This document shows positions 1,373 to 13,252 of a DNA stretch of 64,000 nucleotides, in pieces (the first letter of the stretch is position 1; the number at the start of each line of letters is the position of its first letter). The notes beneath the pieces were generated by a model that saw only the letters and a program-made list of their open reading frames with translations, did not search any database and had not been told where the DNA came from. The translations under genes and the position numbers were made by a program. The stretch comes from Chloroflexota bacterium (GTDB lineage: Bacteria; Chloroflexota; UBA11872; VXOZ01). Location of the stretch: positions 1,696,001-1,760,000 of the forward strand of contig OY760183.1 in the NCBI GenBank assembly GCA_963663275.1, given 5' to 3'.

Positions 1373-1870
1373 ATGTTGTCGGAATCGATACGCACGGCGT
1401 TGAACAAGCAGATTACCGATGAACTCTATGCGTCCCACCTCTACCTGGCGATGGCGGCGTACTTCGAGTCGCAGGCGCTGCCCGGCTTCGCCCACTGGAT
1501 GCGGGTGCAAAGCGACGAGGAACGCGCCCACGCGCTGCGCGTGATCGACATGGTGGTGAACCGGGGCGGCGACATAGTCATCCGGGGCATCGAGGCGCCC
1601 TCAGCGTGCATGGGCACGCCATTGGCGGTCTTCGAGAACGCGCTGGCCCACGAGCAGGCGGTCACACAGACGATCCACAATCTCTACGCCCTGGCCGAAA
1701 AAGAGAATGACTACACTACCCAGGCGGAATTGCAGTGGTTCTTGGTGGAGCAGGTGGAGGAAGAGCGCGTCACCGGCGACATCGTGCAGCAACTGAAGCG
1801 CGTGCAGGGCGAGCCGAGCGGCTTAATGATGCTGGACCGGGAACTGGCGGGACGGGCCGGGGAAGAATAG
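1373..1870 (+). CDS. ftnA: Non-heme ferritin
   Basis: LNKQITDELYASHLYLAMAAYF, EERAH, HEQ, LQWFLVEQVEEE ferroxidase-centre motifs; RBS AAGGAG. Confidence 0.93.
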   Translation: MLSESIRTALNKQITDELYASHLYLAMAAYFESQALPGFAHWMRVQSDEERAHALRVIDMVVNRGGDIVIRGIEAPSACMGTPLAVFENALAHEQAVTQTIHNLYALAEKENDYTTQAELQWFLVEQVEEERVTGDIVQQLKRVQGEPSGLMMLDRELAGRAGEE

Positions 1871-2944: not shown

Positions 2945-3038
2945 GGAAGAGATACAAGCGCGTTAAGTGCTTTCTTTTGCTTACAGAGTCTATGCAGACG
3001 CATGGGGCGCTGGCGAATTGCTATCGAGAAGAAGACTC

Positions 3039-3857
3039 TCAGGCGAGGGATCTTCGCCTGAACAAGGCCACCAGTGCGAATATCCCGCTTGCTACCAGGG
3101 TCATAGCAGGAGCGGCGGGCACATTGAAGTGGTAGGAGACGTAGAGGCCTGTCACGGCGGACGCGGCCCCCAGCGCCGCGGCCAGCATCATCATCGAGAC
3201 AAAGCGCCTGACCAGCAAGTACGCCGCGGCGGCAGGCGTTACCAGCATCGCCATGACAAGCACAATACCCGCCGCCTGAATCCCTATGACGATAACGAGC
3301 GCAAGCATTACCAGGAACACGTAGTCGACCAAATTGGAACGGGAACCGACAACCTGCGATCCCACGGGGTCAAAGCTCGCGAACAGCAGCCAGTGGTGGA
3401 GAGTGAACAGCCCCAGGATGACGATCACGGTTATCCCAAGGGACACATAGATGTCGGTCGGGGATATGGCCAATACCTTGCCCAGGAGCAGGTCTTCCAT
3501 ATTGACTCTGATGGTCGTCGCGCTTGCTAGCATCACCAGTCCCAGGGCAAACATGGCCGCAAAGAGAATGCCTATGGAAGTATCGGTGCTGAGACCCGCG
3601 CGCCGGCTCACCGTTCTGACCAGAATGGCAACAGAGACCCCGGTTGGGATGGCGGCAATGGCCGGATTGATGCCGACAATGAAGCCAAGCACCATTCCCG
3701 GCAGCACGGCGTGGGCGAGTGCGTCCCCAATGAAGGCGAGATTCCTGGTGACGACGTACGCGCCAACCAGCGGACACATCACGCCCACAAGTATCGAGCC
3801 GATGAGGGCTCTCACCATGAAGCCATACTCAAGCGGGGCGACAAAGAAGTCGATCAT
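3039..3857 (-). CDS. Zn/Mn ABC transporter permease (ZnuB/MntB type)
   Basis: FIGDALAHAVLPG ABC-3 signature, multiple TM helices. Confidence 0.92.
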   Translation of the reverse strand: MIDFFVAPLEYGFMVRALIGSILVGVMCPLVGAYVVTRNLAFIGDALAHAVLPGMVLGFIVGINPAIAAIPTGVSVAILVRTVSRRAGLSTDTSIGILFAAMFALGLVMLASATTIRVNMEDLLLGKVLAISPTDIYVSLGITVIVILGLFTLHHWLLFASFDPVGSQVVGSRSNLVDYVFLVMLALVIVIGIQAAGIVLVMAMLVTPAAAAYLLVRRFVSMMMLAAALGAASAVTGLYVSYHFNVPAAPAMTLVASGIFALVALFRRRSLA

Positions 3858-3872
3858 GTCTTCCGTCTACGG

Positions 3873-4622
3873 CTATCCATCCGCGGCAAGGCGCAAACCG
3901 TGGGCGCCGTACAGCTTCTCCATGACTTTGGACGTAAAGACCAGGTCGGGAGGGCCGCAGGCGCACACCTGGCAGTTCAGGCACAATACCTCGTCGAAGC
4001 GGCCGGCCAGGTTGGTGACGTCGTGGGTCGCCAGCATGACAATGCACCCATCATCCCGCAGCGATCGAAGGACCTCGACGAGGCCCTCTTGAGCGCCGAC
4101 GTCGACGCCGCTGAAGGCCTCATCAAGGAGAAGGACGCTCGCCTCCTGGGCCAGAGCCCTGGCGACGAACACCCTTTGCCTCTGTCCTCCCGATAGCTCC
4201 GTCATGAGCGCGGAGCGATGCTCCCACAGGCCCACACGGCAGATGCACGCCTTGACCAGTTCTCGGTCTCTCTTTCCAGGCCGCTGAAACCACTTGAGCC
4301 GGCAGCGCCGGCCCATCATGACAACGTCCGACACGGTCACGGGAAAGCGCCAGTTGACGCTCTCCCGCTGAGGCACGTACGCCAGCGCCCCGCCCCCCTG
4401 GTCTACACGGTTCAGAGTTACCTTGCCCTGGTGAACCGGAAGGAGACCGGCAATGGCATTGAACAGGGTGCTCTTGCCGGCTCCATTCGGTCCGACAACG
4501 CCCATGAGCGTTCCCGCGTCCACGTCGAAGGTGACGTCGTTCAGGGCCATGTGCCCATCGAGCTCGACAGTCACGTTCCGAAGCGATACGCTCGCTCTAT
4601 GCGCGTTCGGGGCGGTGTTCAC
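3873..4622 (-). CDS. Zn/Mn ABC transporter ATP-binding protein (ZnuC type)
   Basis: GPNGAGKST, YVPQR, LSGGQRQRV, LLLDE, THD. Confidence 0.92.
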   Translation of the reverse strand: MNTAPNAHRASVSLRNVTVELDGHMALNDVTFDVDAGTLMGVVGPNGAGKSTLFNAIAGLLPVHQGKVTLNRVDQGGGALAYVPQRESVNWRFPVTVSDVVMMGRRCRLKWFQRPGKRDRELVKACICRVGLWEHRSALMTELSGGQRQRVFVARALAQEASVLLLDEAFSGVDVGAQEGLVEVLRSLRDDGCIVMLATHDVTNLAGRFDEVLCLNCQVCACGPPDLVFTSKVMEKLYGAHGLRLAADG

Positions 4623-6826
4623 TTCAATGCCTCAACAATTCGGGTCACATTGGCGCGCACCATGCCAAGGTACGTGCCGGCGTCGCTGTCCTCCGGCCCA
4701 AGCGATCCTGAGTAGAGCTGGACCACCTCCGCGCCGGTCTCCCTCGCGACGGCCTGTGCCAGCCTGTCACTGACAGTCGTCTCGCCAAACAATGCCGGCA
4801 CCTCATGCTCGCGAATCACGTCGACCAGTGCCGCAATGTGCTCCGCGGAGGGCTCCACGTGCGTTGAGAGTGACGGGATGACCAGACCGACCACCTCGAA
4901 CCCATACGCCTTCGCAAAGTAGGCGAGGCTGTCGTGTGACGTAACCAACAGTCTGCGCTCCGGCGGCAACACGCTGACCTGCTCTTGGATCCAGGCGTGT
5001 AGCTCGTCGAGCTTCACCTCGTACTCAGCCGCATTTTGGTAGTAGAGGCTCGCGTTGTCCGGGTCTAGAATCGCAAGCCGGGCGGCTATCTCGTTGACGG
5101 CGATCTTCACGCGGATCGGATCGAACCAGAAGTGAGGATCGTACGCGCCGTGCGCGTGTCCATCATGGCCATGTTCGTCTTCGTGTTCAGCATGTCCCGC
5201 GATTCCTACGAAGGTAATCTTGGTGGGCACGCCCTCTACGTGCCAGTGCCGGACCACCTCCAGGTCGTGCTCGTCTAGCTGCAGCACCTCGCCTCCCACC
5301 GAGTCCGTGACGAAGATTGCGCCTGGCGCCACGGCCAGGTGCGGGCGCGTCCAGAAGCCTGTCTCCACCGGTGTCGCCAGGAAGCCGGCCTTGGAAGCCA
5401 TCAGATCCCCGTCGTGAGCGTCATACACACGAAGTTCACCGTCGCTCATGACCACCAACAGAGTCTCACCACCATGGCCAAACTGGATTTGGATTGGGTG
5501 GAGGCTATCCGTAGCGGCGAGGAGCAACTCCATCGTCTCCTCTTCCGGCTCCACGACGTACAGCCCGGACGCCGAGCCCAGGGCAAAGAAGTGATCCAGG
5601 CCGTGGAAGCCCCAAACGTCTGTCACCTGGAAGTCTTCAGCAACCCCGTCCGGCGCTATGAAGACATGGGAATACTCGCCATCATGAGCCTCCAGAACCA
5701 AGACGCCCCCGAGGCATCCGAATGCGGCCTCGTGGCCGTTGCTTGTGCCTCCCTGCAGCGAGTCGCAACCCTCAGCGCTGTAGAGGACAGTGCCGTCCAG
5801 TTCTCTTATCTCCGCGCCAATCGGAAGCCGAGCGTCAGCGTTGCCGGGGTAATCCGGATGCTTGATGGTTACGGCGAACAGATCGTCATCCAGGGGTACC
5901 GCCGCTCCATGCTGGGGGCCTGCGTCCATCCGTAGAGGAACATAGCTGTCCCCATGCTCTTCCAGTTCATGTAGGTCGAGAAGCACCACTTCACCGGAGC
6001 CCGCGTAGAAGATCGCCGCCCAATCATCGCCAATATGCACGTTCACGGGACTGTCCCCGCTCAAGTCCAGGGGAAGCATACGCGTGTCTGATTCTACCAG
6101 GTCTTCGTGGTCTCCATGAGCCTCCATGAATATCCCGCCATCGAAGACGTGAGCCGTGTCGGCTTCCGCGGAGACGGCGAATGCAAAGCGGCCATTCTCG
6201 GTGGAGTAGATCAGGCCGGCCCGCGAACCCAGGTCGAAGCGGTTCTGGTCCACCGCGCCGGTTTCCAGGTCGATGACGGAAACTTTCCCTTCCTCGCCAT
6301 CGCCGACGAGCAAGCGCCCTATGAGCATCTCGTCATGGTGGTCGCCTTCATCCTCGTGATCGTCATGCATAGCGATCTCGGTGAACTCGATCGGATCGAC
6401 GCTTTCACCAAGCGCGACTATCTTGGATTCATCCGCACTGGCGTTGTGCAAGAGTTCCTCCAGCCAAGCGGCCTCCAGCAAGAGGCCGACAGACAAGACG
6501 AGATCCGCATCGGCTACCCTGGCAATGTCGCGGGGTGTGGGCTGGAAGTGGTGCGGGTCGCCACCCACCGGCAGCAGGCTGAAGACCTCCACTCTGTCTC
6601 CGCCTACCACCCGCGCCCAATCTGCCAGGAAGTTGGTGGTTGTCACCACCTGTAGCCGCGGCAAGTCGGCTTTGGGCGCCTCCTCGACAGGCGCTTGGGA
6701 ATCCTCGTCACTTGCGCAGGCAGCCAGGAAAGCCATAGCGAATACGACAAGACCCACAGCTACCGTTTGCGCCAACCGCCCGAAGCGATTATTGCGACTA
6801 AGTGTCGGGAGCATTCCGATTTCCAT
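4619..6826 (-). CDS. Cluster A-I metal-binding lipoprotein (ZnuA/AztC-like) with an AztD-like beta-propeller inserted in the His-rich loop
   Basis: Lipobox LAAC; ligand motifs DPHHF, DPHFW, SHDS; about 375-aa insert (aa ~167-541) with RLLVGDGEEGKVSVIDL, DGG..AHGDH, QHGAAVP between two His/acidic tracts. Confidence 0.85.
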   Translation of the reverse strand: MEIGMLPTLSRNNRFGRLAQTVAVGLVVFAMAFLAACASDEDSQAPVEEAPKADLPRLQVVTTTNFLADWARVVGGDRVEVFSLLPVGGDPHHFQPTPRDIARVADADLVLSVGLLLEAAWLEELLHNASADESKIVALGESVDPIEFTEIAMHDDHEDEGDHHDEMLIGRLLVGDGEEGKVSVIDLETGAVDQNRFDLGSRAGLIYSTENGRFAFAVSAEADTAHVFDGGIFMEAHGDHEDLVESDTRMLPLDLSGDSPVNVHIGDDWAAIFYAGSGEVVLLDLHELEEHGDSYVPLRMDAGPQHGAAVPLDDDLFAVTIKHPDYPGNADARLPIGAEIRELDGTVLYSAEGCDSLQGGTSNGHEAAFGCLGGVLVLEAHDGEYSHVFIAPDGVAEDFQVTDVWGFHGLDHFFALGSASGLYVVEPEEETMELLLAATDSLHPIQIQFGHGGETLLVVMSDGELRVYDAHDGDLMASKAGFLATPVETGFWTRPHLAVAPGAIFVTDSVGGEVLQLDEHDLEVVRHWHVEGVPTKITFVGIAGHAEHEDEHGHDGHAHGAYDPHFWFDPIRVKIAVNEIAARLAILDPDNASLYYQNAAEYEVKLDELHAWIQEQVSVLPPERRLLVTSHDSLAYFAKAYGFEVVGLVIPSLSTHVEPSAEHIAALVDVIREHEVPALFGETTVSDRLAQAVARETGAEVVQLYSGSLGPEDSDAGTYLGMVRANVTRIVEALK

Positions 6827-7001
6827 CTCTCCTCCTCTTTCGTCTGTTTGGTTACTCGATGCTGTCTTTGGCGCTCAGCCAAAGCGTTACGATGCGCGTG
6901 TAAACCGTGGACGGCCAATACCTTTAGAGAGATCCCTACCAATGAGGAATTCACCAATCGGTCTTGGCAGTCCCACTCTTGCGAACGCCGAGCGAATGCG
7001 A

Positions 7002-7061
7002 CGCAGGTTGCAAACCTACTCTACCGGAAGGAACTGATCGCAGGTTGCAAACCTGCGCTAC
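7002..7061. repeat. Pair of GTAG-type REP palindromes (CGCAGGTTGCAAACCTGCGCTAC)
   Basis: Two tandem copies; the same family recurs near 37143, 40822 and 40933. Confidence 0.75.
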
Positions 7062-7141
7062 CGGACGGGATTAACCGCGGGATACAAGCCTTCTCACACC
7101 CATCCCGGCCTCTCCCCGTCATATTGGGGAACACCCTGCGC

Positions 7142-7231
7142 CAGTCCACAGCCGGCCGTAATGGCCGCACGTCCGGTTCCAGTCGCGGCGGCGAGGACAC
7201 GGCGTCAACTCAATCAAGGATGATCCAGTAT
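7142..7231 (-). pseudogene. Degenerate 5' stub of a Tat-exported lipoprotein gene, paralogous to the start of the 11603-13252 gene
   Basis: After RBS AGGAGG: ATA CTG GAT CAT CCT TGA TTG AGT TGA CGC CGT... = (I)LDHP*LS*RRVLAAATGTGRAAITAGCG, versus MKDTQLNRRSFLAGAAATGLAALAAACG. Confidence 0.7.
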
Positions 7232-7286
7232 AGTCCAGACCTCCTATCGCAATGCATACGAACACTCACTTCCAATTGGCACAGGT

Positions 7287-7318
7287 AGTGTAGCATTTAA
7301 TGAGAACAGTTGTCAATT
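7287..7318 (-). promoter_or_regulatory. Sigma70-type promoter (TTGACA-N18-TACACT) overlapped by a Fur/Zur-family palindrome
   Basis: Box TAATGAGAACAGTTGTCAATT at 7298-7318 (7-1-7 core TGAGAAC-A-GTTGTCA) covers the -35 element; points toward the Zn ABC operon. Confidence 0.75.
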
Positions 7319-7538
7319 AGAGGCAAGAAGCGCCTCAATCCGCGGGCATGAAGAGGAAACGGAATGATAGACGGCCCCGGCCACCGTTGCCTGGCAGCGC
7401 TTCCTTGCCTTCACCCATGCCCACGCGAAACTTCGTTCGACCCGGCAGCGGGCCGGCCCAGGCACACGGCTCTTGGCGCCGCCTCCGCCGTGTGGGCAGC
7501 CCTCTCACACAGGCCGAGACCTGATCAATTGTCCGCGT

Positions 7539-8531
7539 TCAGCGCGTCTCGTCTTCGTATAAGTGACAGGCAACCGTATGGCCGGTGCCTACCTCCCTGG
7601 TCGGCGGCATGACCTGCTTGCACACGGGCATCACGTGGGCGCAGCGCGGGTGAAACGGGCAGCCTGACGGGGGATGGAGCGGGCTGGGCACGTCGCCGCC
7701 GAGCACGATCCGCTCCTGGCGCTCTCCCGGTCGCGGCTGCGGAATGGCCGAGAGCAGCGCCTGGGTATAGGGATGCCGGGGCTGCCGGTACAACTCGTCG
7801 CCGGGCGCGGTCTCCACCAGTTTGCCGAGATACATCACCCCGATCCGGTCCGCGATGTACCGGACCACCGCCAAGTTGTGGGCGATGAACAGGTAGGTCA
7901 GGCCGCGCGCGGCCTGTACGTCGCGCAGCAGGTTGAGAACTTGCGCCTGCACCGAGACGTCCAGCGCCGAAACCGGTTCATCGCAGACGATGAGTTGGGG
8001 TTGCAGGACCAGCGCCCGGGCAATGCCGATACGCTGGCGTTGCCCCCCGCTGAACTCGTGCGGGTAACGCCGCGCGTATTCGGGACGCAGGCCGACGGCC
8101 GTGAGCGCCTCATGCACCTGCGCCTCTCGCTCGCGCTGCGTGCCCAAGCCGTGCACAACCAATCCCTCAGCGATGCTGGCGCCGACGGTCACACGTGGAT
8201 TCAGGGAGCCATAGGGGTCTTGGAAGATGATCTGGGCCTGCCGGCGCCAGGCGGCGAGGGCGCGGCCGCGCAGTTTGAACACGTCCTGTCCGGCAAAGCG
8301 CACGCGGCCGCCGGTCGCGGGAATGAGGCGCAGGATGACGCGCCCGGTCGTGGTCTTGCCGCAGCCCGATTCTCCTACGAGGCCAAACGTCTCGCCGCGC
8401 CGGATGTGGAAGGAGACTCCATCGACTGCCCGCACCGCCGGCCGGCGACCGATCCGGCTTCCCCGCACCGGAAAGTGCTTGACCAGGTCTCTGACCTGGA
8501 GCAGCGGCTCTGTCTCGCGTGTGCCGCTCAT
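7539..8531 (-). CDS. Oligopeptide/nickel ABC transporter ATPase (OppF/DppF type)
   Basis: [19 protein letters not shown]-terminal CPFHPRC/VACHL; ATGA overlap with the upstream gene. Confidence 0.93.
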
Positions 8532-9583
8532 GGCGGCGCCTGCCCGGAGACGGATGACTGGGCGCCACCGGCCGGCGGCGCGGAAGCGTGCAGCCAGCAG
8601 CGGACGCGGTGGCCCGGCCCTGCGGCTACCTCCGGTGGCCGTTCGGTCATGCAATGTGGCAGCGCATGGGGGCAGCGCGGGGTGAAGGCGCAGCCGGCCG
8701 GCAGCCGGCTCGGATGCGGCACGCTGCCCGCGATGGCCGGGAGTTGCCGGCTGCGGTCGGTGGCAAGTGAGGGCATGCTCATGAGCAGCCCTTGGGTGTA
8801 GGGGTGTTGCGGGGCCTTGAACAAGGTCTCGACCGGCGCGTACTCGACGATTCGCCCGGCATACATAACGGCCACGTCGTCGGCCAACTCAGCAATCACT
8901 CCCAGATCGTGGGTAATGAACAGCAGACTCATCCCCAACTCTTCCTGAAGTTCCCGGAGCAGATCGAGGACTTGGGCCTGAATGGTCACGTCAAGCGCCG
9001 TCGTTGGCTCGTCCGCGATCAGCAAGGCTGGGCGGCACGCCAGGGCCATCGCGATCATTACACGCTGGCGCATGCCGCCGCTCAGTTCGTGGGGATACGC
9101 GCGGGAGCGCTCGGCCGGAGCCGGGATTCCCACCTGGTGGAGCAACGCGACCGCTTGCTCCCGCGCCGCGCGTCGATTCACGCGCCGGTGTACGCGAACC
9201 GCCTCCGCAATCTGATCCCCGACCCGTTGCACGGGATTGAGCGAGGTCATCGGTTCCTGGAAGATCATCGCGATGTCCCGGCCGCGAATCCTCTGCCGCT
9301 CCCGTTCGCGGAGCGTGAGTAGATTACGGCCTTCCAGCCGGATCTCACCGGCAAGCTCGCAGGCCGGCGGCGAGGGCAGCAACCCCATCAGGGCCAAAGC
9401 CGTGACGGACTTGCCGCAGCCGGATTCGCCGACCAAACCGAGAATGCGCCCCGGCCCGATGTCGAAGGCCGCGTCCTGCACGGCAGGCACGTCGCCGTCG
9501 GAGGTGGCAAACGAGACGCATAGCCCTTGCACCGCAAGCAGAGGCGTTTGCTCTGAGTGGGATTGCTTTGATATTTCGGCCAT
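8528..9583 (-). CDS. Oligopeptide/nickel ABC transporter ATPase (OppD/DppD type)
   Basis: [32 protein letters not shown]. Confidence 0.93.
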
Positions 9584-9625
9584 CGGTGCTCGCTTGTACT
9601 CCCAGTTTAGCAAATCTTCTTTCGA

Positions 9626-10561
9626 TTAGCGGTGCCGCGAGCGCGGATCCAGGGCCGCGCGCAGCCCGTCTCCAAGCAAGTTGCACGCCAAGACGGACAG
9701 GAGAATGCACAGCCCCGGCAAGAGGACCAGATGCGGCGCTTGGTCGAGGTAGGTGCGGGCGTCGTTCAGCATCGCGCCCCATTCCGGGGTCGGCGGCTGG
9801 ATGCCCAAGCCCAGAAAGCTGAGCGATGAAATCATCAGGATGATGTGGCCCAGGTCCAGCGTGGCGAGCACCACGATGGGGCCGATGATATTGGGCAGGA
9901 TGTGCCGCGCCATGATACGCAGGTTCGAGGCGCCCAGCGCGCGTGCCGCCAGCACGAACTCCCATTCGCGGGCCGCGAGCGTCGCGGCGCGAAAGATGCG
10001 GGCGTGATCGGCCCAGCCGACGGCGATGATGGCGATCAGGAGGCTCTGGAGGCTGGGGCCGAGAAAGCCGACCAATGCCAGCGAAAGGATCAGCCGCGGC
10101 AGCGCCAGTAACACGTCGATACCGCCCACCACGACGCGGTCTACCCACCCGCCGAGAAAACCGGCCGAAATGCCGATCGCCAGACCAACGAGGAGCAACC
10201 CGATGGTCGTGGGAATGGCGCTCCCCAGGGTGGCGCGGGCGCCGTAGATGAGCCGGCTCGCCAGGTCGCGGCCCAGTTGGTCGGTCCCGAGCGGATAGCG
10301 CGCGCTGGGGCCTTGCAGTTTGTCGCTCAAGTGAATGGCGAGCGGATCGTGCGGCGCGATGAGGGGCGCCGCTGCCGCGACGGCGACGAACAGACCCAGC
10401 AAGATCAGGCCGCCGAGCGCCGCCCGATCGGCCCGTAACACCTGTCGCGCCGCGCGCCACGGGGAGTGCTCGCCGACCGCATAGAGCTCTTCGTCGCGCA
10501 GCGTCTCCGTTGGCGCCGGGGCGGCCGGCAGCGCGGGGCTAGGCATGGTCGTCGCCTCCAC
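9626..10561 (-). CDS. ABC transporter permease (OppC/NikC type)
   Basis: [12 protein letters not shown]-like loop, [20 protein letters not shown]. Confidence 0.93.
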
Positions 10562-11507
10562 CCTGCGCCCGCGCGCCCAAGCGGATGCGCGGATCGATTA
10601 CGGCGTAGAGCAGGTCGGTCGCCAGATTGACGAGCACGAACGTCAGGCCGGCAATCAGCACGAAGCCCTGGATGATGGGGTAGTCGCGCGCGTAGATCGC
10701 GTCCACCACCAGCTTGCCCACGCCCGGCCACGCAAAGATCGTCTCGACGATGGCCGCCCCGCCGAGGAGTTGGCCGAACTGGGTGCCGGCGACCGTGACG
10801 ACCGGGAGGAGCGCGTTCCGCAACGCATGTCTGAGCACGACCACCCCCTTGCTCAGGCCCTTGGCGTAGGCCGTGCGAATATAGTCTTGCCCCAAGACTT
10901 CCAACACGCTGGCGTGGGTCAGCCGGACGAGTGTACCCATCGTGAAGACGCTGAGGGAAATGGCAGGCAAGATCAGGTACCGGGGGTGGCCGTCGCCGTA
11001 GCCCGCGACCGGCAGAAGCCGCAGCGTCACGGCGAAAGCATAGACCAGGATCAGCGCCACCGCAAAACTCGGCAGCGAGGCGCAGAGCAAGGCGAGCACC
11101 CGGCCGGCTTCGTCCACCAGCGAGCCGCGGTACACGGCCGTCACCGTGCCAATCGAAACTCCCAAGACCAGGGCCAGGAGCAGGGCGGCCGTGGCGAGCT
11201 TGACCGTCGCGGGAATGCGCCGGGCCAATTCCGGCAACACCGGCACGCGGTCGGTGTACGTCAGTCCCAGGTCCCCGCGGGCCACGTCACCGAGCCAGCG
11301 GACGTAACGCAGCGGCATGGGAGCGTTGAGTCCCAACTCCTCCTGTTTGGCCGCGATTTCCGCCGCCGTTGGCTCCTGGTCGCCTTGGCTCAGGGCGAGC
11401 TCGGCCGGATCGCCCGGCGAAAGATTGGCCAGGAGAAAGGCCAGCAGCGAGACGCCCAGGAGCACCGGTACCAGCGCGAGGAGACGGCTCAACGTGTAGC
11501 GGACCAT
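10539..11507 (-). CDS. ABC transporter permease (OppB/NikB type)
   Basis: PGDPA, DYIRTAYAKGL, ETIFAWPGVG, RDYP, DPRI. Confidence 0.93.
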   Translation of the reverse strand: MVRYTLSRLLALVPVLLGVSLLAFLLANLSPGDPAELALSQGDQEPTAAEIAAKQEELGLNAPMPLRYVRWLGDVARGDLGLTYTDRVPVLPELARRIPATVKLATAALLLALVLGVSIGTVTAVYRGSLVDEAGRVLALLCASLPSFAVALILVYAFAVTLRLLPVAGYGDGHPRYLILPAISLSVFTMGTLVRLTHASVLEVLGQDYIRTAYAKGLSKGVVVLRHALRNALLPVVTVAGTQFGQLLGGAAIVETIFAWPGVGKLVVDAIYARDYPIIQGFVLIAGLTFVLVNLATDLLYAVIDPRIRLGARAQGGGDDHA

Positions 11508-11602
11508 TGTATTGACTCCTCGCAAACGAGGCGGCGGCTGGGGCCCTCAGCCGCCAGCCGGCCCCTGCCGCCGCCTCGGACGAACCACGTTGCCGACCGG
11601 AA

Positions 11603-13252
11603 TCAGTCCACGGAGATATCCGCCAGGGTCGGCTGGTAGAGCGCGCTCACGTTGTAGCCCTTCACGGCTGGGTGGTGGGCATAGACGACGTGATCGTAGA
11701 GCAGCGCCGCGAAGCGCACGTCATTGAACGCGATCTCCTGCAACTGGTCGTACAGGGCTCTGCGCTCATTGTAGTCTAGCGCGACGGCTGCCTGTTCGAT
11801 GAGACTGTCGACCTCGGGGTCGTTATAGTCGAAGTGCCGCGTAGCATTGGTATTGCCCTGCGAGTGCATGAAGCGGCTGAAGATGTAGTCAGGATCACCG
11901 TTGGCCCAGCCGAAGGTGCTCACGGTCAGGTTATAGTCCCCGTTCGCAACCACTTCTTTCCAAGCCGCATGCTCGATGAGCTGGAGTTCGGCGTCCAAGC
12001 CCAGCGGCGCAATGACGGCCTGGATGACTTCAAACAGGCTCTTGTAGGGGTAACGGTTGTTCTGCAGCGACGAGATGGGCGCTGTGATCTTCATCCGCTG
12101 ACCGCCGAGGGCCGCTTGCGCCAACTCCTGCGCCTTTTGCGGGTTGTATTCCGGGACGAGGTCCTGGCGCGCCCACGTGGTGGCAAACGACGGCAAGATA
12201 CTCTTCCCGGCCGTGGCAAAGCCATGCCACAGGTCGGACGCCAGCGACTCCCGGTCGATGGCCATGTTCACTGCCTGGCGCATCTCGGGCTTGTCGAACG
12301 GCGGTTTCCTACTGTTGAACGACAGGTACTGGAAGAGCGCGATGGGCTTTGAATTCACGACCACTGCGCCCTCTCCGCGCAACTGCGCGCCCTGTTGCGG
12401 CTGCAAACCACCGAGGTCGACCACGCCGTCAATCTCACCGGAGCGCAACGCCGCGACACGCGTATTGGGGTCCGGCAAGGAGCGAAGGATGATTTGCTTC
12501 ACCGCCGGCGCGCCGCGATGGTACCGATCAAAGGCCTCCAGAATGAGGTGTTGGCCTTTCTCCCACTCGACAATCTTGAACGGCCCGGTGCTCGCCGGCG
12601 GCGCATTGAAGCTCCCTTCGGCCGTAAAGGATGCCGGTGAGAACATCGCCGAGTAGAAATTAGACATCGTGTGCGGCAGCGCGGGCCGGGGCTGGCCCAG
12701 AGTCAGCCGCACCGTGCTCGCGTCCACCGCCTCGACCTTCTCGAACTCGCCCAGGGCCCGTTCCTTGCTGTAGCCGAAAAAGCGCGAACTGCGCGGGCTG
12801 ATCTTGACGTAGCGCTCGATATTGGCGGCAACAGCGCCGGCATCGAACTCACCGCCATCATGGAAGGTTATCCCGGGGCGGAGCTTGATGGTCCACACCC
12901 GCGCATCGTCGCTCGATTCCCACGACTCGGCCAACTCGGGCTGGGGCACCAGATCGTTGTCCAGTTTGGAGAGACTGTTCCACGCATTCACGATTAGATG
13001 CGTGAAATACGGGTCTTCAAGACCATTGGCCAGGTCGCGCGGGGCCGCGAGGATGAGTTCCTCGCTGCTGCGGTTGCGGGGAGGCGCATCGGCCGACCCT
13101 TGTGCGCTCGGCGCCTTCGTCTCGCCCTGAGCGTCGGCTGCGTCTGCGGGTCCCGGGGAGCCCGCCGGTCCACAGGCGGCCGCCAAGGCGGCAAGTCCGG
13201 TTGCTGCCGCGCCGGCGAGAAAACTGCGCCGGTTGAGTTGCGTATCCTTCAC
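11603..13252 (-). CDS. Family 5 ABC substrate-binding lipoprotein (Opp/Dpp/Nik/Cnt type), Tat signal
   Basis: RRSFL Tat motif, AAAC lipobox, PELAESWE, LRPGITFHDG, TGPF; GTG start with AGGAGG. Confidence 0.92.
   Translation of the reverse strand: MKDTQLNRRSFLAGAAATGLAALAAACGPAGSPGPADAADAQGETKAPSAQGSADAPPRNRSSEELILAAPRDLANGLEDPYFTHLIVNAWNSLSKLDNDLVPQPELAESWESSDDARVWTIKLRPGITFHDGGEFDAGAVAANIERYVKISPRSSRFFGYSKERALGEFEKVEAVDASTVRLTLGQPRPALPHTMSNFYSAMFSPASFTAEGSFNAPPASTGPFKIVEWEKGQHLILEAFDRYHRGAPAVKQIILRSLPDPNTRVAALRSGEIDGVVDLGGLQPQQGAQLRGEGAVVVNSKPIALFQYLSFNSRKPPFDKPEMRQAVNMAIDRESLASDLWHGFATAGKSILPSFATTWARQDLVPEYNPQKAQELAQAALGGQRMKITAPISSLQNNRYPYKSLFEVIQAVIAPLGLDAELQLIEHAAWKEVVANGDYNLTVSTFGWANGDPDYIFSRFMHSQGNTNATRHFDYNDPEVDSLIEQAAVALDYNERRALYDQLQEIAFNDVRFAALLYDHVVYAHHPAVKGYNVSALYQPTLADISVD

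Follow-up and report, generated by a model that had tools for sequence, protein, structure and literature searches.

The window analysed here is a 64,000-nt stretch of contig OY760183.1 from a Chloroflexota bacterium. On its reverse strand it encodes a 735-residue cluster A-I binding lipoprotein of a transporter of the ATP-binding cassette (ABC) type, with an AztD-type beta-propeller in the loop between the two lobes. Coordinates are positions in this window, and residue numbers are those of the 735-residue protein. The gene and its parts are as follows:

4619–6826, reverse strand: whole gene, for a 735-residue cluster A-I binding lipoprotein with an AztD domain in its loop; stop codon at 4619–4621
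6716–6826, reverse strand: signal peptide and lipobox, residues 1–37, with LAAC at residues 34–37 and Cys37
6389–6667, reverse strand: binding-protein N-lobe, residues 54–146, with the His92 ligand in a DPH motif (profile and alignment)
6320–6388, reverse strand: N-side linker, residues 147–169, with 4 His, 5 Asp and 5 Glu among 23 residues; predicted disordered
5204–6319, reverse strand: AztD-type beta-propeller, residues 170–541 (profiles, PDB alignment, AlphaFold2 model, Foldseek)
5141–5203, reverse strand: C-side linker, residues 542–562, with 6 His among 21 residues; predicted disordered
4622–5140, reverse strand: binding-protein C-lobe, residues 563–735, with ligands His565 (DPHFW) and His631 (TSHD)

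The reading frame is uninterrupted through all 735 codons. An initial annotation made from this DNA had described a lipoprotein with the two halves of a cluster A-I protein set apart, and every motif it quoted was located: DPHH at residues 90–93, a tract of His and acidic residues at 153–166, a C-side His tract at 545–560, DPHFW at 563–567 and TSHDS at 629–633. It placed the insert at about residues 167–541 (nt 6328–5204), close to the 170–541 occupied by the folded propeller in the structural model. Ala36 and Cys37 of the lipobox are conserved in at least 90% of 67 aligned relatives, the set to which the conservation counts below refer.

Sequence and fold agree that the insert is an AztD domain, as that annotation had suspected from its resemblance to AztD. 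The NCBIfam AztD profile NF038015 aligns over positions 1–354 of 356 with residues 174–540 (E = 1.8e-29). The insert alone, searched against PDB sequences, matched only the two solved AztD proteins, those of Citrobacter koseri (6cmk, E = 7.6e-28) and Paracoccus denitrificans (6ck1, E = 5.4e-22). An AlphaFold2 model of the full chain, built on 67 sequences, has a mean predicted local distance difference test (pLDDT) score of 84.0 and a predicted template modelling (pTM) score of 0.57, and comprises two confidently modelled alpha/beta lobes plus an all-beta domain spanning residues 170–541. Segments with pLDDT below 50 are residues 1–13, 38–53, 147–165 and 545–561, the last two being the His/Asp/Glu-rich linkers, so that the proposed full-chain prediction returned a propeller flanked by two disordered linkers. 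In the proposed Foldseek comparison, nine AztD chains rank first in the PDB (E from 6e-28 to 2e-23), followed by cluster A-I binding proteins. The AztD matches have target template modelling (TM) scores of 0.83–0.86 and a root-mean-square deviation of 2.8–3.3 Å over about 380 columns, and the domain has the eight-bladed propeller fold. In the same search holo AztC (5w57_A) spans both lobes over 681 columns (TM score 0.83), with the insert looped out.

Equivalent residues were read off HMMER alignments, to PsaA for the lobes and to the PDB AztD proteins for the insert. The site 2 residues of P. denitrificans AztD (His99, Gly100, His102 and Asp104) correspond to H237, G238, H240 and D242, conserved in 67, 66, 65 and 67 of the 67 relatives, respectively. 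The fourth ligand of that site, the C-terminal His408, is without a fixed counterpart, and H545 and H548 sit in the linker. The disulfide pair Cys214–Cys231 is represented by C354 and C371, each present in 67/67. Both linkers also resemble parts of free AztD: the C-side linker is matched in the alignment by the His-rich C-terminal tail of the C. koseri protein, and the N-side tract is reminiscent of the N-terminal DHDHDHE motif that excerpts of PMC7463823 give for Paracoccus AztD.

The surrounding lobes form a ZnuA-type binding protein. Pfam ZnuA (PF01297) matches in two stretches (E = 1.7e-84; 283.8 bits against a cut-off of 29), the second of which aligns profile positions 82–263 with residues 541–733, and the top NCBIfam family is AztC (NF040870, E = 2.3e-77), likewise in two stretches split by the insert, with a score of 260.2 bits that lies under the equivalog cut-off of 350. 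H92, H565 and H631 stand at PsaA positions 67, 139 and 205, and each is conserved in 67/67. Together with position 280 we take these PsaA positions to be the metal ligands, and the PDB titles of E205Q and D280N mutants agree. The PsaA Glu205 position holds His631, a pattern of zinc-type sites, and the Asp280 position holds Gly707, in a column with G in 48 relatives, D in 18 and a gap in 1. Because His631 replaces Glu205 and Gly707 replaces Asp280, the alignment indicates a three-His site of the ZnuA type rather than the His/His/Glu/Asp site of manganese proteins, given those presumed ligand roles.

The insertion point is that of the ZnuA His loop, as first proposed. A second cluster A-I binding lipoprotein in the same genome, a zinc-type paralogue (L013:1351-2640, 429 residues), is encoded about 90 kb away with its own ATPase and permease downstream. 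Its identity to the fused protein is 61% over the C-lobe and 46% over the N-lobe, and it has a repetitive 113-residue His/Asp/Glu loop exactly at the insertion point, and Asp at the fourth ligand position. The short flexible AztC loop with its transfer histidines H120, H122 and H131 (excerpts of PMC9175090) is absent from the fused protein, and a linker, a propeller and a second linker take its place.

Chimeric assembly, which would make the fusion an artefact, can be dismissed: relatives share the domain order, and independent contigs of public sequencing runs placed on positions 4619–7320 bridge both junctions; the initial annotation had named unspanned junctions as grounds for rejecting its proposal. 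In run X5, records 21 (5105–5696) and 23 (5701–6515) together span all four domain boundaries. Record 5 of run X2, a sponge metagenome, covers 5113–6382 and thereby the two propeller/linker boundaries, and 27 of the 58 pieces placed from that run are at least 99% alike. Two RNA-library runs contribute record 31 of X9 (6288–6480), across the N-side junction, and record 11 of X20 (5031–5186), across the C-lobe/linker boundary, neither of which is proof of transcription; stretches of the gene that RNA-library contigs leave uncovered are likewise uninformative. Among the compared contigs, 9-nt in-frame length differences are confined to the linkers. The source genome is a single 3.53-Mb contig, and syntenic orthologues of the fused gene are present in genomes G197 and G402.

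The fused form is widespread among near relatives. A word-indexed search with residues 100–620, which include both junctions, found 1103 proteins at E ≤ 1e-3 among 8000 candidates scored, and the best 120 of the 1103 are 62–96% identical at 88–100% coverage. Hidden Markov models (HMMs) for the two lobes and the propeller, derived from alignment A1, assign the order N-lobe/AztD/C-lobe to 120 of 121 proteins (query included), the other being a fragment. The architecture survey that had been suggested therefore yields at least 120 near relatives, query included, with the shared order. An exhaustive search across 1.84 billion cluster representatives yielded 24,324 matches at E ≤ 1e-3, most of them plain binding proteins. 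Of the 150 listed representatives of 50%-identity clusters, 14 are fused (13 N-lobe/AztD/C-lobe and one double AztD), with identities down to 31–33%. Two fused fragments, P0125 and P0126, are additional to these, and P0250 is probably a third: the HMMs label it AztD alone, yet it matches the query from residue 32. The ESM Atlas match is the protein's own ZnuA cluster of 207 members, mostly Chloroflexota. In public annotation the fused proteins are named no more specifically than ZnuA or 'metal' or 'zinc' ABC transporter substrate-binding protein.

Other arrangements of the domain occur among the matches. P0122 (1216 residues) and the frame at G396:C1:448324-450705, together given as a binding protein of 1216–1227 residues, carry two near-identical AztD propellers in tandem in the loop; the tandem looks like a very recent internal duplication, with tree branch lengths of 0 and 0.005. 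P0167, an 895-residue metagenomic protein, has both a ZinT domain (residues 128–281; Pfam 41.4 bits, cut-off 27) and an AztD domain (residues 327–695) between its lobes. AztD is free-standing in P0128, P0132 and P0249. In P0127 (1094 residues) and P0166 (680 residues) it is fused to choice-of-anchor M/TIGR03769 surface modules of 'anchored repeat' transporter systems.

A tree was computed for 31 AztD domains. The surface-type P0127 and two free forms, P0128 and P0132, fall inside the well-supported clade of the window's fused relatives, and well-supported branches force at least three state changes. Since the tree is unrooted and its branches are long, we limit the claim to this, that the AztD domain has moved more than once.

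Taxonomically the fused form is patchy across the phylum and common in one Dehalococcoidia-like group of metagenome-assembled genomes (MAGs). The ten loci that come from named genome records all belong to uncultured Chloroflexota or Dehalococcoidia MAGs. When the phylum was sampled evenly, the insert query found a relative at E ≤ 1e-10 in 6 of the 401 genomes and 4 of the 217 genera, each in a frame of 747–1227 residues except for the split gene of genome G143. The sample includes G227, flagged as unpublished, on which none of the conclusions depends. A proteobacterial AztD HMM matched 22 of the 401 genomes at E ≤ 1e-3, seven of them below 1e-10.

In the window the fused gene heads an operon with an ATPase and a permease:

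3873–4622, reverse strand: ABC ATPase, its start overlapping the binding-protein stop by 4 nt; AztA/MntA-like, under equivalog cut-offs
3039–3857, reverse strand: ABC-3 permease, top NCBIfam match AztB (E = 4.9e-60), under the cut-off
3038–3062: terminator-like hairpin after the permease gene
7287–7316, reverse strand: sigma-70-like site TTGACA-18-TACACT (10/12), the only one upstream and weak (1 found, 1.0 expected by chance)

The order binding protein–ATPase–permease is kept in loci L002 and L003, flanked as in the window by genes for Opp-type ATPases, a short-chain dehydrogenase/reductase (SDR), ferritin and Band-7 proteins. Locus L011 reads Fur-family gene, fused gene, ATPase, permease. 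In L004–L009 a Fur-family gene lies directly upstream of the fused gene and a CobW/COG0523 GTPase gene downstream. In all, the former stands upstream in 7 of the 10 loci and the latter downstream in 6, L010 being truncated on its 5' side. COG0523 and Fur-family genes are the usual company of zinc-starvation rather than detoxification genes. They also adjoin free AztD genes, according to excerpts of PMC6689063. NCBIfam could not separate Zur from Fur for the regulator of these loci. The window's own genome has one Fur-family gene, far from the fused gene, and a search of the genome found no other AztD, free-standing or otherwise.

We consider it about 70% probable that the gene product is the binding lipoprotein of a zinc importer resembling AztABC and carries AztD as a tethered domain, with zinc caught by the linkers and site 2 and handed over within the molecule before the propeller moves aside. 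Zinc would be captured outside the cell by the His/Asp/Glu-rich linkers and by site 2 (H237, H240, D242 and one His of the C-side linker). Both propeller termini would help to build the site 2 extension, and the disordered linkers of about 20 residues would tether them at the edge of the binding cleft. This would hold site 2 at very high local concentration beside H92, H565 and H631, zinc could pass by ligand exchange, and the propeller could swing aside on its linkers as the loaded binding protein docks on the permease and ATPase encoded downstream. For a cell without a closed periplasm such a fusion would provide a non-diffusing 1:1 chaperone. We infer zinc binding and hand-off from homology and context, and this mechanism from the fact that the propeller ends carrying site 2 join the stumps of the transfer loop.

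The free system gives this reading its frame. In excerpts of PMC6689063 and PMC7463823, the extension that bears AztD site 2 consists of the N- and C-terminal strands together with a blade 2 hairpin, AztC receives zinc from site 2 only, and site 1 has no known role. The same excerpts report that transfer needs the flexible loop of AztC and its three histidines and that the AztD–AztC complex apparently forms slowly, as the rate-limiting step, and describe a docking model with site 2 in the AztC cleft about 10 Å from the final site. The fusion would bypass that slow encounter step. The fused protein combines the same two protein families as AztABCD of P. denitrificans, with site 2 and the disulfide conserved and a permease whose best match is AztB. 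It differs in having Gly707 where AztC has an Asp ligand, in its degenerate site 1, and in that one lipid-anchored polypeptide stands in place of two genes with a free periplasmic AztD. The insert replaces the very loop that transfer requires in AztC; because the loop of the fused protein is the propeller itself, a docking model with the AztC loop threaded into the AztD pore is inapplicable as such.

Several observations weigh against this reading. NF038015 is an 'exception' model with a 400-bit cut-off, far above the 102.6 bits scored here, and every NCBIfam score falls under its curated equivalog cut-off. The modest pTM gives no confident inter-domain geometry, and the model therefore does not define how the propeller is oriented towards the lobes; a three-chain complex prediction of N-lobe, C-lobe and propeller (score 0.00, mark 0.32) bears neither way. 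No Fur/Zur-type operator was found upstream of the fused gene in the window. Further points of this kind are taken up with the alternatives that they favour.

Some of them concern the propeller itself. The site 1 ligands of P. denitrificans AztD (His124, His167 and His218) correspond to N262, H306 and Q358, a loss of two of three. These histidines are kept in 64, 65 and 62 of the 67 relatives, and losses of one to three of them occur only in the five closest (P0001, P0003, P0004, P0005 and P0007), among which all three, or H240 as well, are changed. With site 1 degenerate, only site 2 and the His-rich linkers remain likely zinc sites. The 'store-and-deliver' protein of the initial annotation consequently stands as a single-chain, tethered AztD fusion, with its 'store' half weakened by N262 and Q358 and its delivery resting on homology and context.

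The locus also varies within the genus, of which 17 genomes were searched with the whole protein; orthologues without the insert were assigned by a C-lobe identity of 81–87%, against 56–60% for the paralogue. The fused gene is intact in G000, G197 and G402, and in G143 (L018) it lies in two frames of 276 and 476 codons, split inside the propeller by a frameshift or sequencing error. An orthologue without a propeller is present in G214, G403, G401 and G170, and in G080, G382, G134 and G318 the paralogue alone was found. The remaining five (G404, G278, G188, G238 and G405) gave no match to any cluster A-I binding protein at E ≤ 1e-15 with the whole-protein query; all five are 97–99% complete, and they may rely on another zinc uptake route.

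Two of the alleles without a propeller are at orthologous loci, since the flanking OppF, ATPase and permease genes of G214 and G403 are 90–97% identical to those of the window. The 358-residue protein of G214 (L016) runs from the N-side His tract through V-G-D-G, the start of the first propeller strand, directly into the end of the C-side His tract, and the breakpoints share the bases AT GGC. This remnant and the shared bases mark the allele as derived from a fused ancestor, by an in-frame deletion of about 376 residues of the microhomology type, and not as a primitive state; the distant fused relatives (62–79% identity, L004–L011) agree with that direction. In G403 (L017) a His/Asp/Glu tandem repeat of about 70 residues replaces the propeller.

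The deletion, the repeat and the G143 frameshift together indicate that the propeller is dispensable in some lineages. Its ratio of nonsynonymous to synonymous substitution rates (dN/dS) within the genus is somewhat higher than that of the lobes, 0.25–0.27 against 0.10–0.20 in three comparisons. With the loss of site 1, these observations favour the view that the propeller is a decaying passenger in the genus and that the binding protein works alone, with the insert adding little over a His-rich loop. We regard this as unlikely. Propeller dN/dS is far below 1 in 8 of 8 pairs (0.20–0.26 against L011, 0.09–0.14 in pairs with L004), the frame is open across 1.1 kb, the window's protein retains site 2, Gly238 and both disulfide cysteines, and more distant relatives keep all ligands, including the site 1 histidines in 62–65 of 67. 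The substitution pattern indicates that purifying selection acts on the propeller wherever it has been retained, somewhat less strictly in this genus.

The loci L004–L009 raise a different possibility. Between the fused gene and cobW (about 7710–8300) they hold only ATPase fragments (residues 1–75 and short pieces, with stop codons). A permease gene was not found at these loci, where the fused protein may be an orphan. With its many potential ligands, in two His-rich linkers and the propeller sites, the protein might mainly buffer or sequester zinc at the surface, for storage or protection, without feeding a transporter, and excerpts of PMC6689063 mention knockout work suggesting a role of AztD in periplasmic zinc accumulation. 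Such a function is improbable for the window's protein: the fused gene heads an intact binding protein–ATPase–permease operon in the window, L002, L003 and L011, the three-His transport site is invariant, and the COG0523 and Fur-family genes beside the fused gene in relatives are those of zinc starvation.

A third alternative, that manganese or iron is carried instead or that the propeller binds a non-metal partner, draws on the top NCBIfam match of the ATPase, a Deinococcus manganese transporter system, on the second-best match of the binding protein, MntC, and on the altered site 1. It is very improbable in view of the three-His site, with His and Gly at positions that are Glu and Asp in manganese-binding PsaA, and of COG0523 genes adjoining the fused gene in relatives. 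His-rich linkers, too, are taken as a mark of zinc specificity in excerpts of PMC7463823.

The tethered importer component that we favour is analogous to known proteins without matching any of them. AdcA of streptococci is likewise a Gram-positive-type lipoprotein that joins a zinc-binding protein and an accessory recruiter in one chain (excerpts of PMC6689063 and PMC9175090). Its accessory ZinT domain is appended C-terminally, whereas AztD is inserted inside the loop, and the fused protein has no ZinT match and scores 124 against the cut-off of 700 for AdcA (NF033605). ZnuA-type long-loop proteins share the scaffold, the three-His site and the loop position; theirs is a disordered loop, in contrast to a folded propeller of 372 residues. 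The 'anchored repeat' binding proteins of TIGR03772 (486 profile positions), with an extra module between the lobes, are a precedent for a domain at this site; that module differs from AztD, and the fused protein scores 178.7 against a cut-off of 350. The choice-of-anchor M regions of P0127 and P0166 match TIGR03772 positions 121–305 and 99–204, respectively, with C-lobes from about 285–311 onward.

A literature search returned no AztD fused to, or inserted in, a binding protein; the supplementary sequence and neighbourhood files of PMC6689063, which lay outside the search, may contain fused entries. In excerpts of that paper the word 'fused' refers to ZinT in AdcA only, and it does not occur in those of PMC7463823. 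The fused form is a Rosetta-stone fusion of known partners, AdcA-analogous, made by domain insertion and accompanied by a useful natural allelic series.

Extracytoplasmic transfer of zinc from protein to protein is understood mainly from AztD and AztC, whose complex is transient and represented by a docking model only (excerpts of PMC6689063). A natural single chain that joins the partners through the loop and the termini implicated in transfer supports the idea that site 2 works beside the cleft, and it is a tractable object for structures and kinetics. A propeller, a deletion and a His/Asp repeat at one locus amount to a natural experiment comparing a chaperone with a simple His-rich loop. 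Hundreds of database proteins named only metal ABC transporter substrate-binding protein can also be flagged as chaperone fusions.

The loop contents seen so far range from one AztD or a tandem of two, through ZinT plus AztD and long His/Asp/Glu repeats, to almost nothing. They raise the prospect, tentative and in our judgement somewhat short of even, that the cluster A-I loop is a plug-in socket for rapidly exchanged zinc-capture modules, in which a tethered site 2 would load the three-His site within the molecule. Site 2 may then transiently supply the fourth ligand that is absent at Gly707. If so, the fused protein would be a natural, stable stand-in for the transient AztD–AztC complex, which has resisted structural study, and the deletion and repeat alleles of the same genus would be ready-made controls.

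In L004–L009 and L011 a conserved palindrome of the form TGATAC-N3-GTATCA occupies the interval between the Fur-family and fused genes, beside a TTGCC/TTGCT box resembling a −35 element, and is a candidate Fur/Zur operator at these loci. It is not enriched in the window's genome (39 matches with at most two mismatches, against 28 for the control). An Rfam scan of 6600–7700 gave one chance-level match only. The 5' region of the fused gene contains two tandem palindromic copies (7039–7064 and 7002–7027, reverse strand) with the core AGGTTTGCAACCT inside CCGGTAG-N-GCAGGTTTGCAACCTGCG. The core has 178 and 168 copies genome-wide at one mismatch or fewer, against 0–2 for the control, often in short tandem arrays. 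With some 346 genomic copies, the pair at 7002–7064 was rejected as an operator; it looks like a dispersed repeat similar to repetitive extragenic palindromic (REP) elements.

Among the remaining neighbours, a WD40-repeat protein gene follows cobW in L004–L009. In the window, an Opp/Dpp-type ABC operon of five genes (7539–13252, reverse strand) lies directly upstream of the fused gene and encodes a family-5 binding protein along with two permeases and two ATPases; SDR and ferritin-like genes lie downstream of the zinc operon (1373–1870, forward strand).

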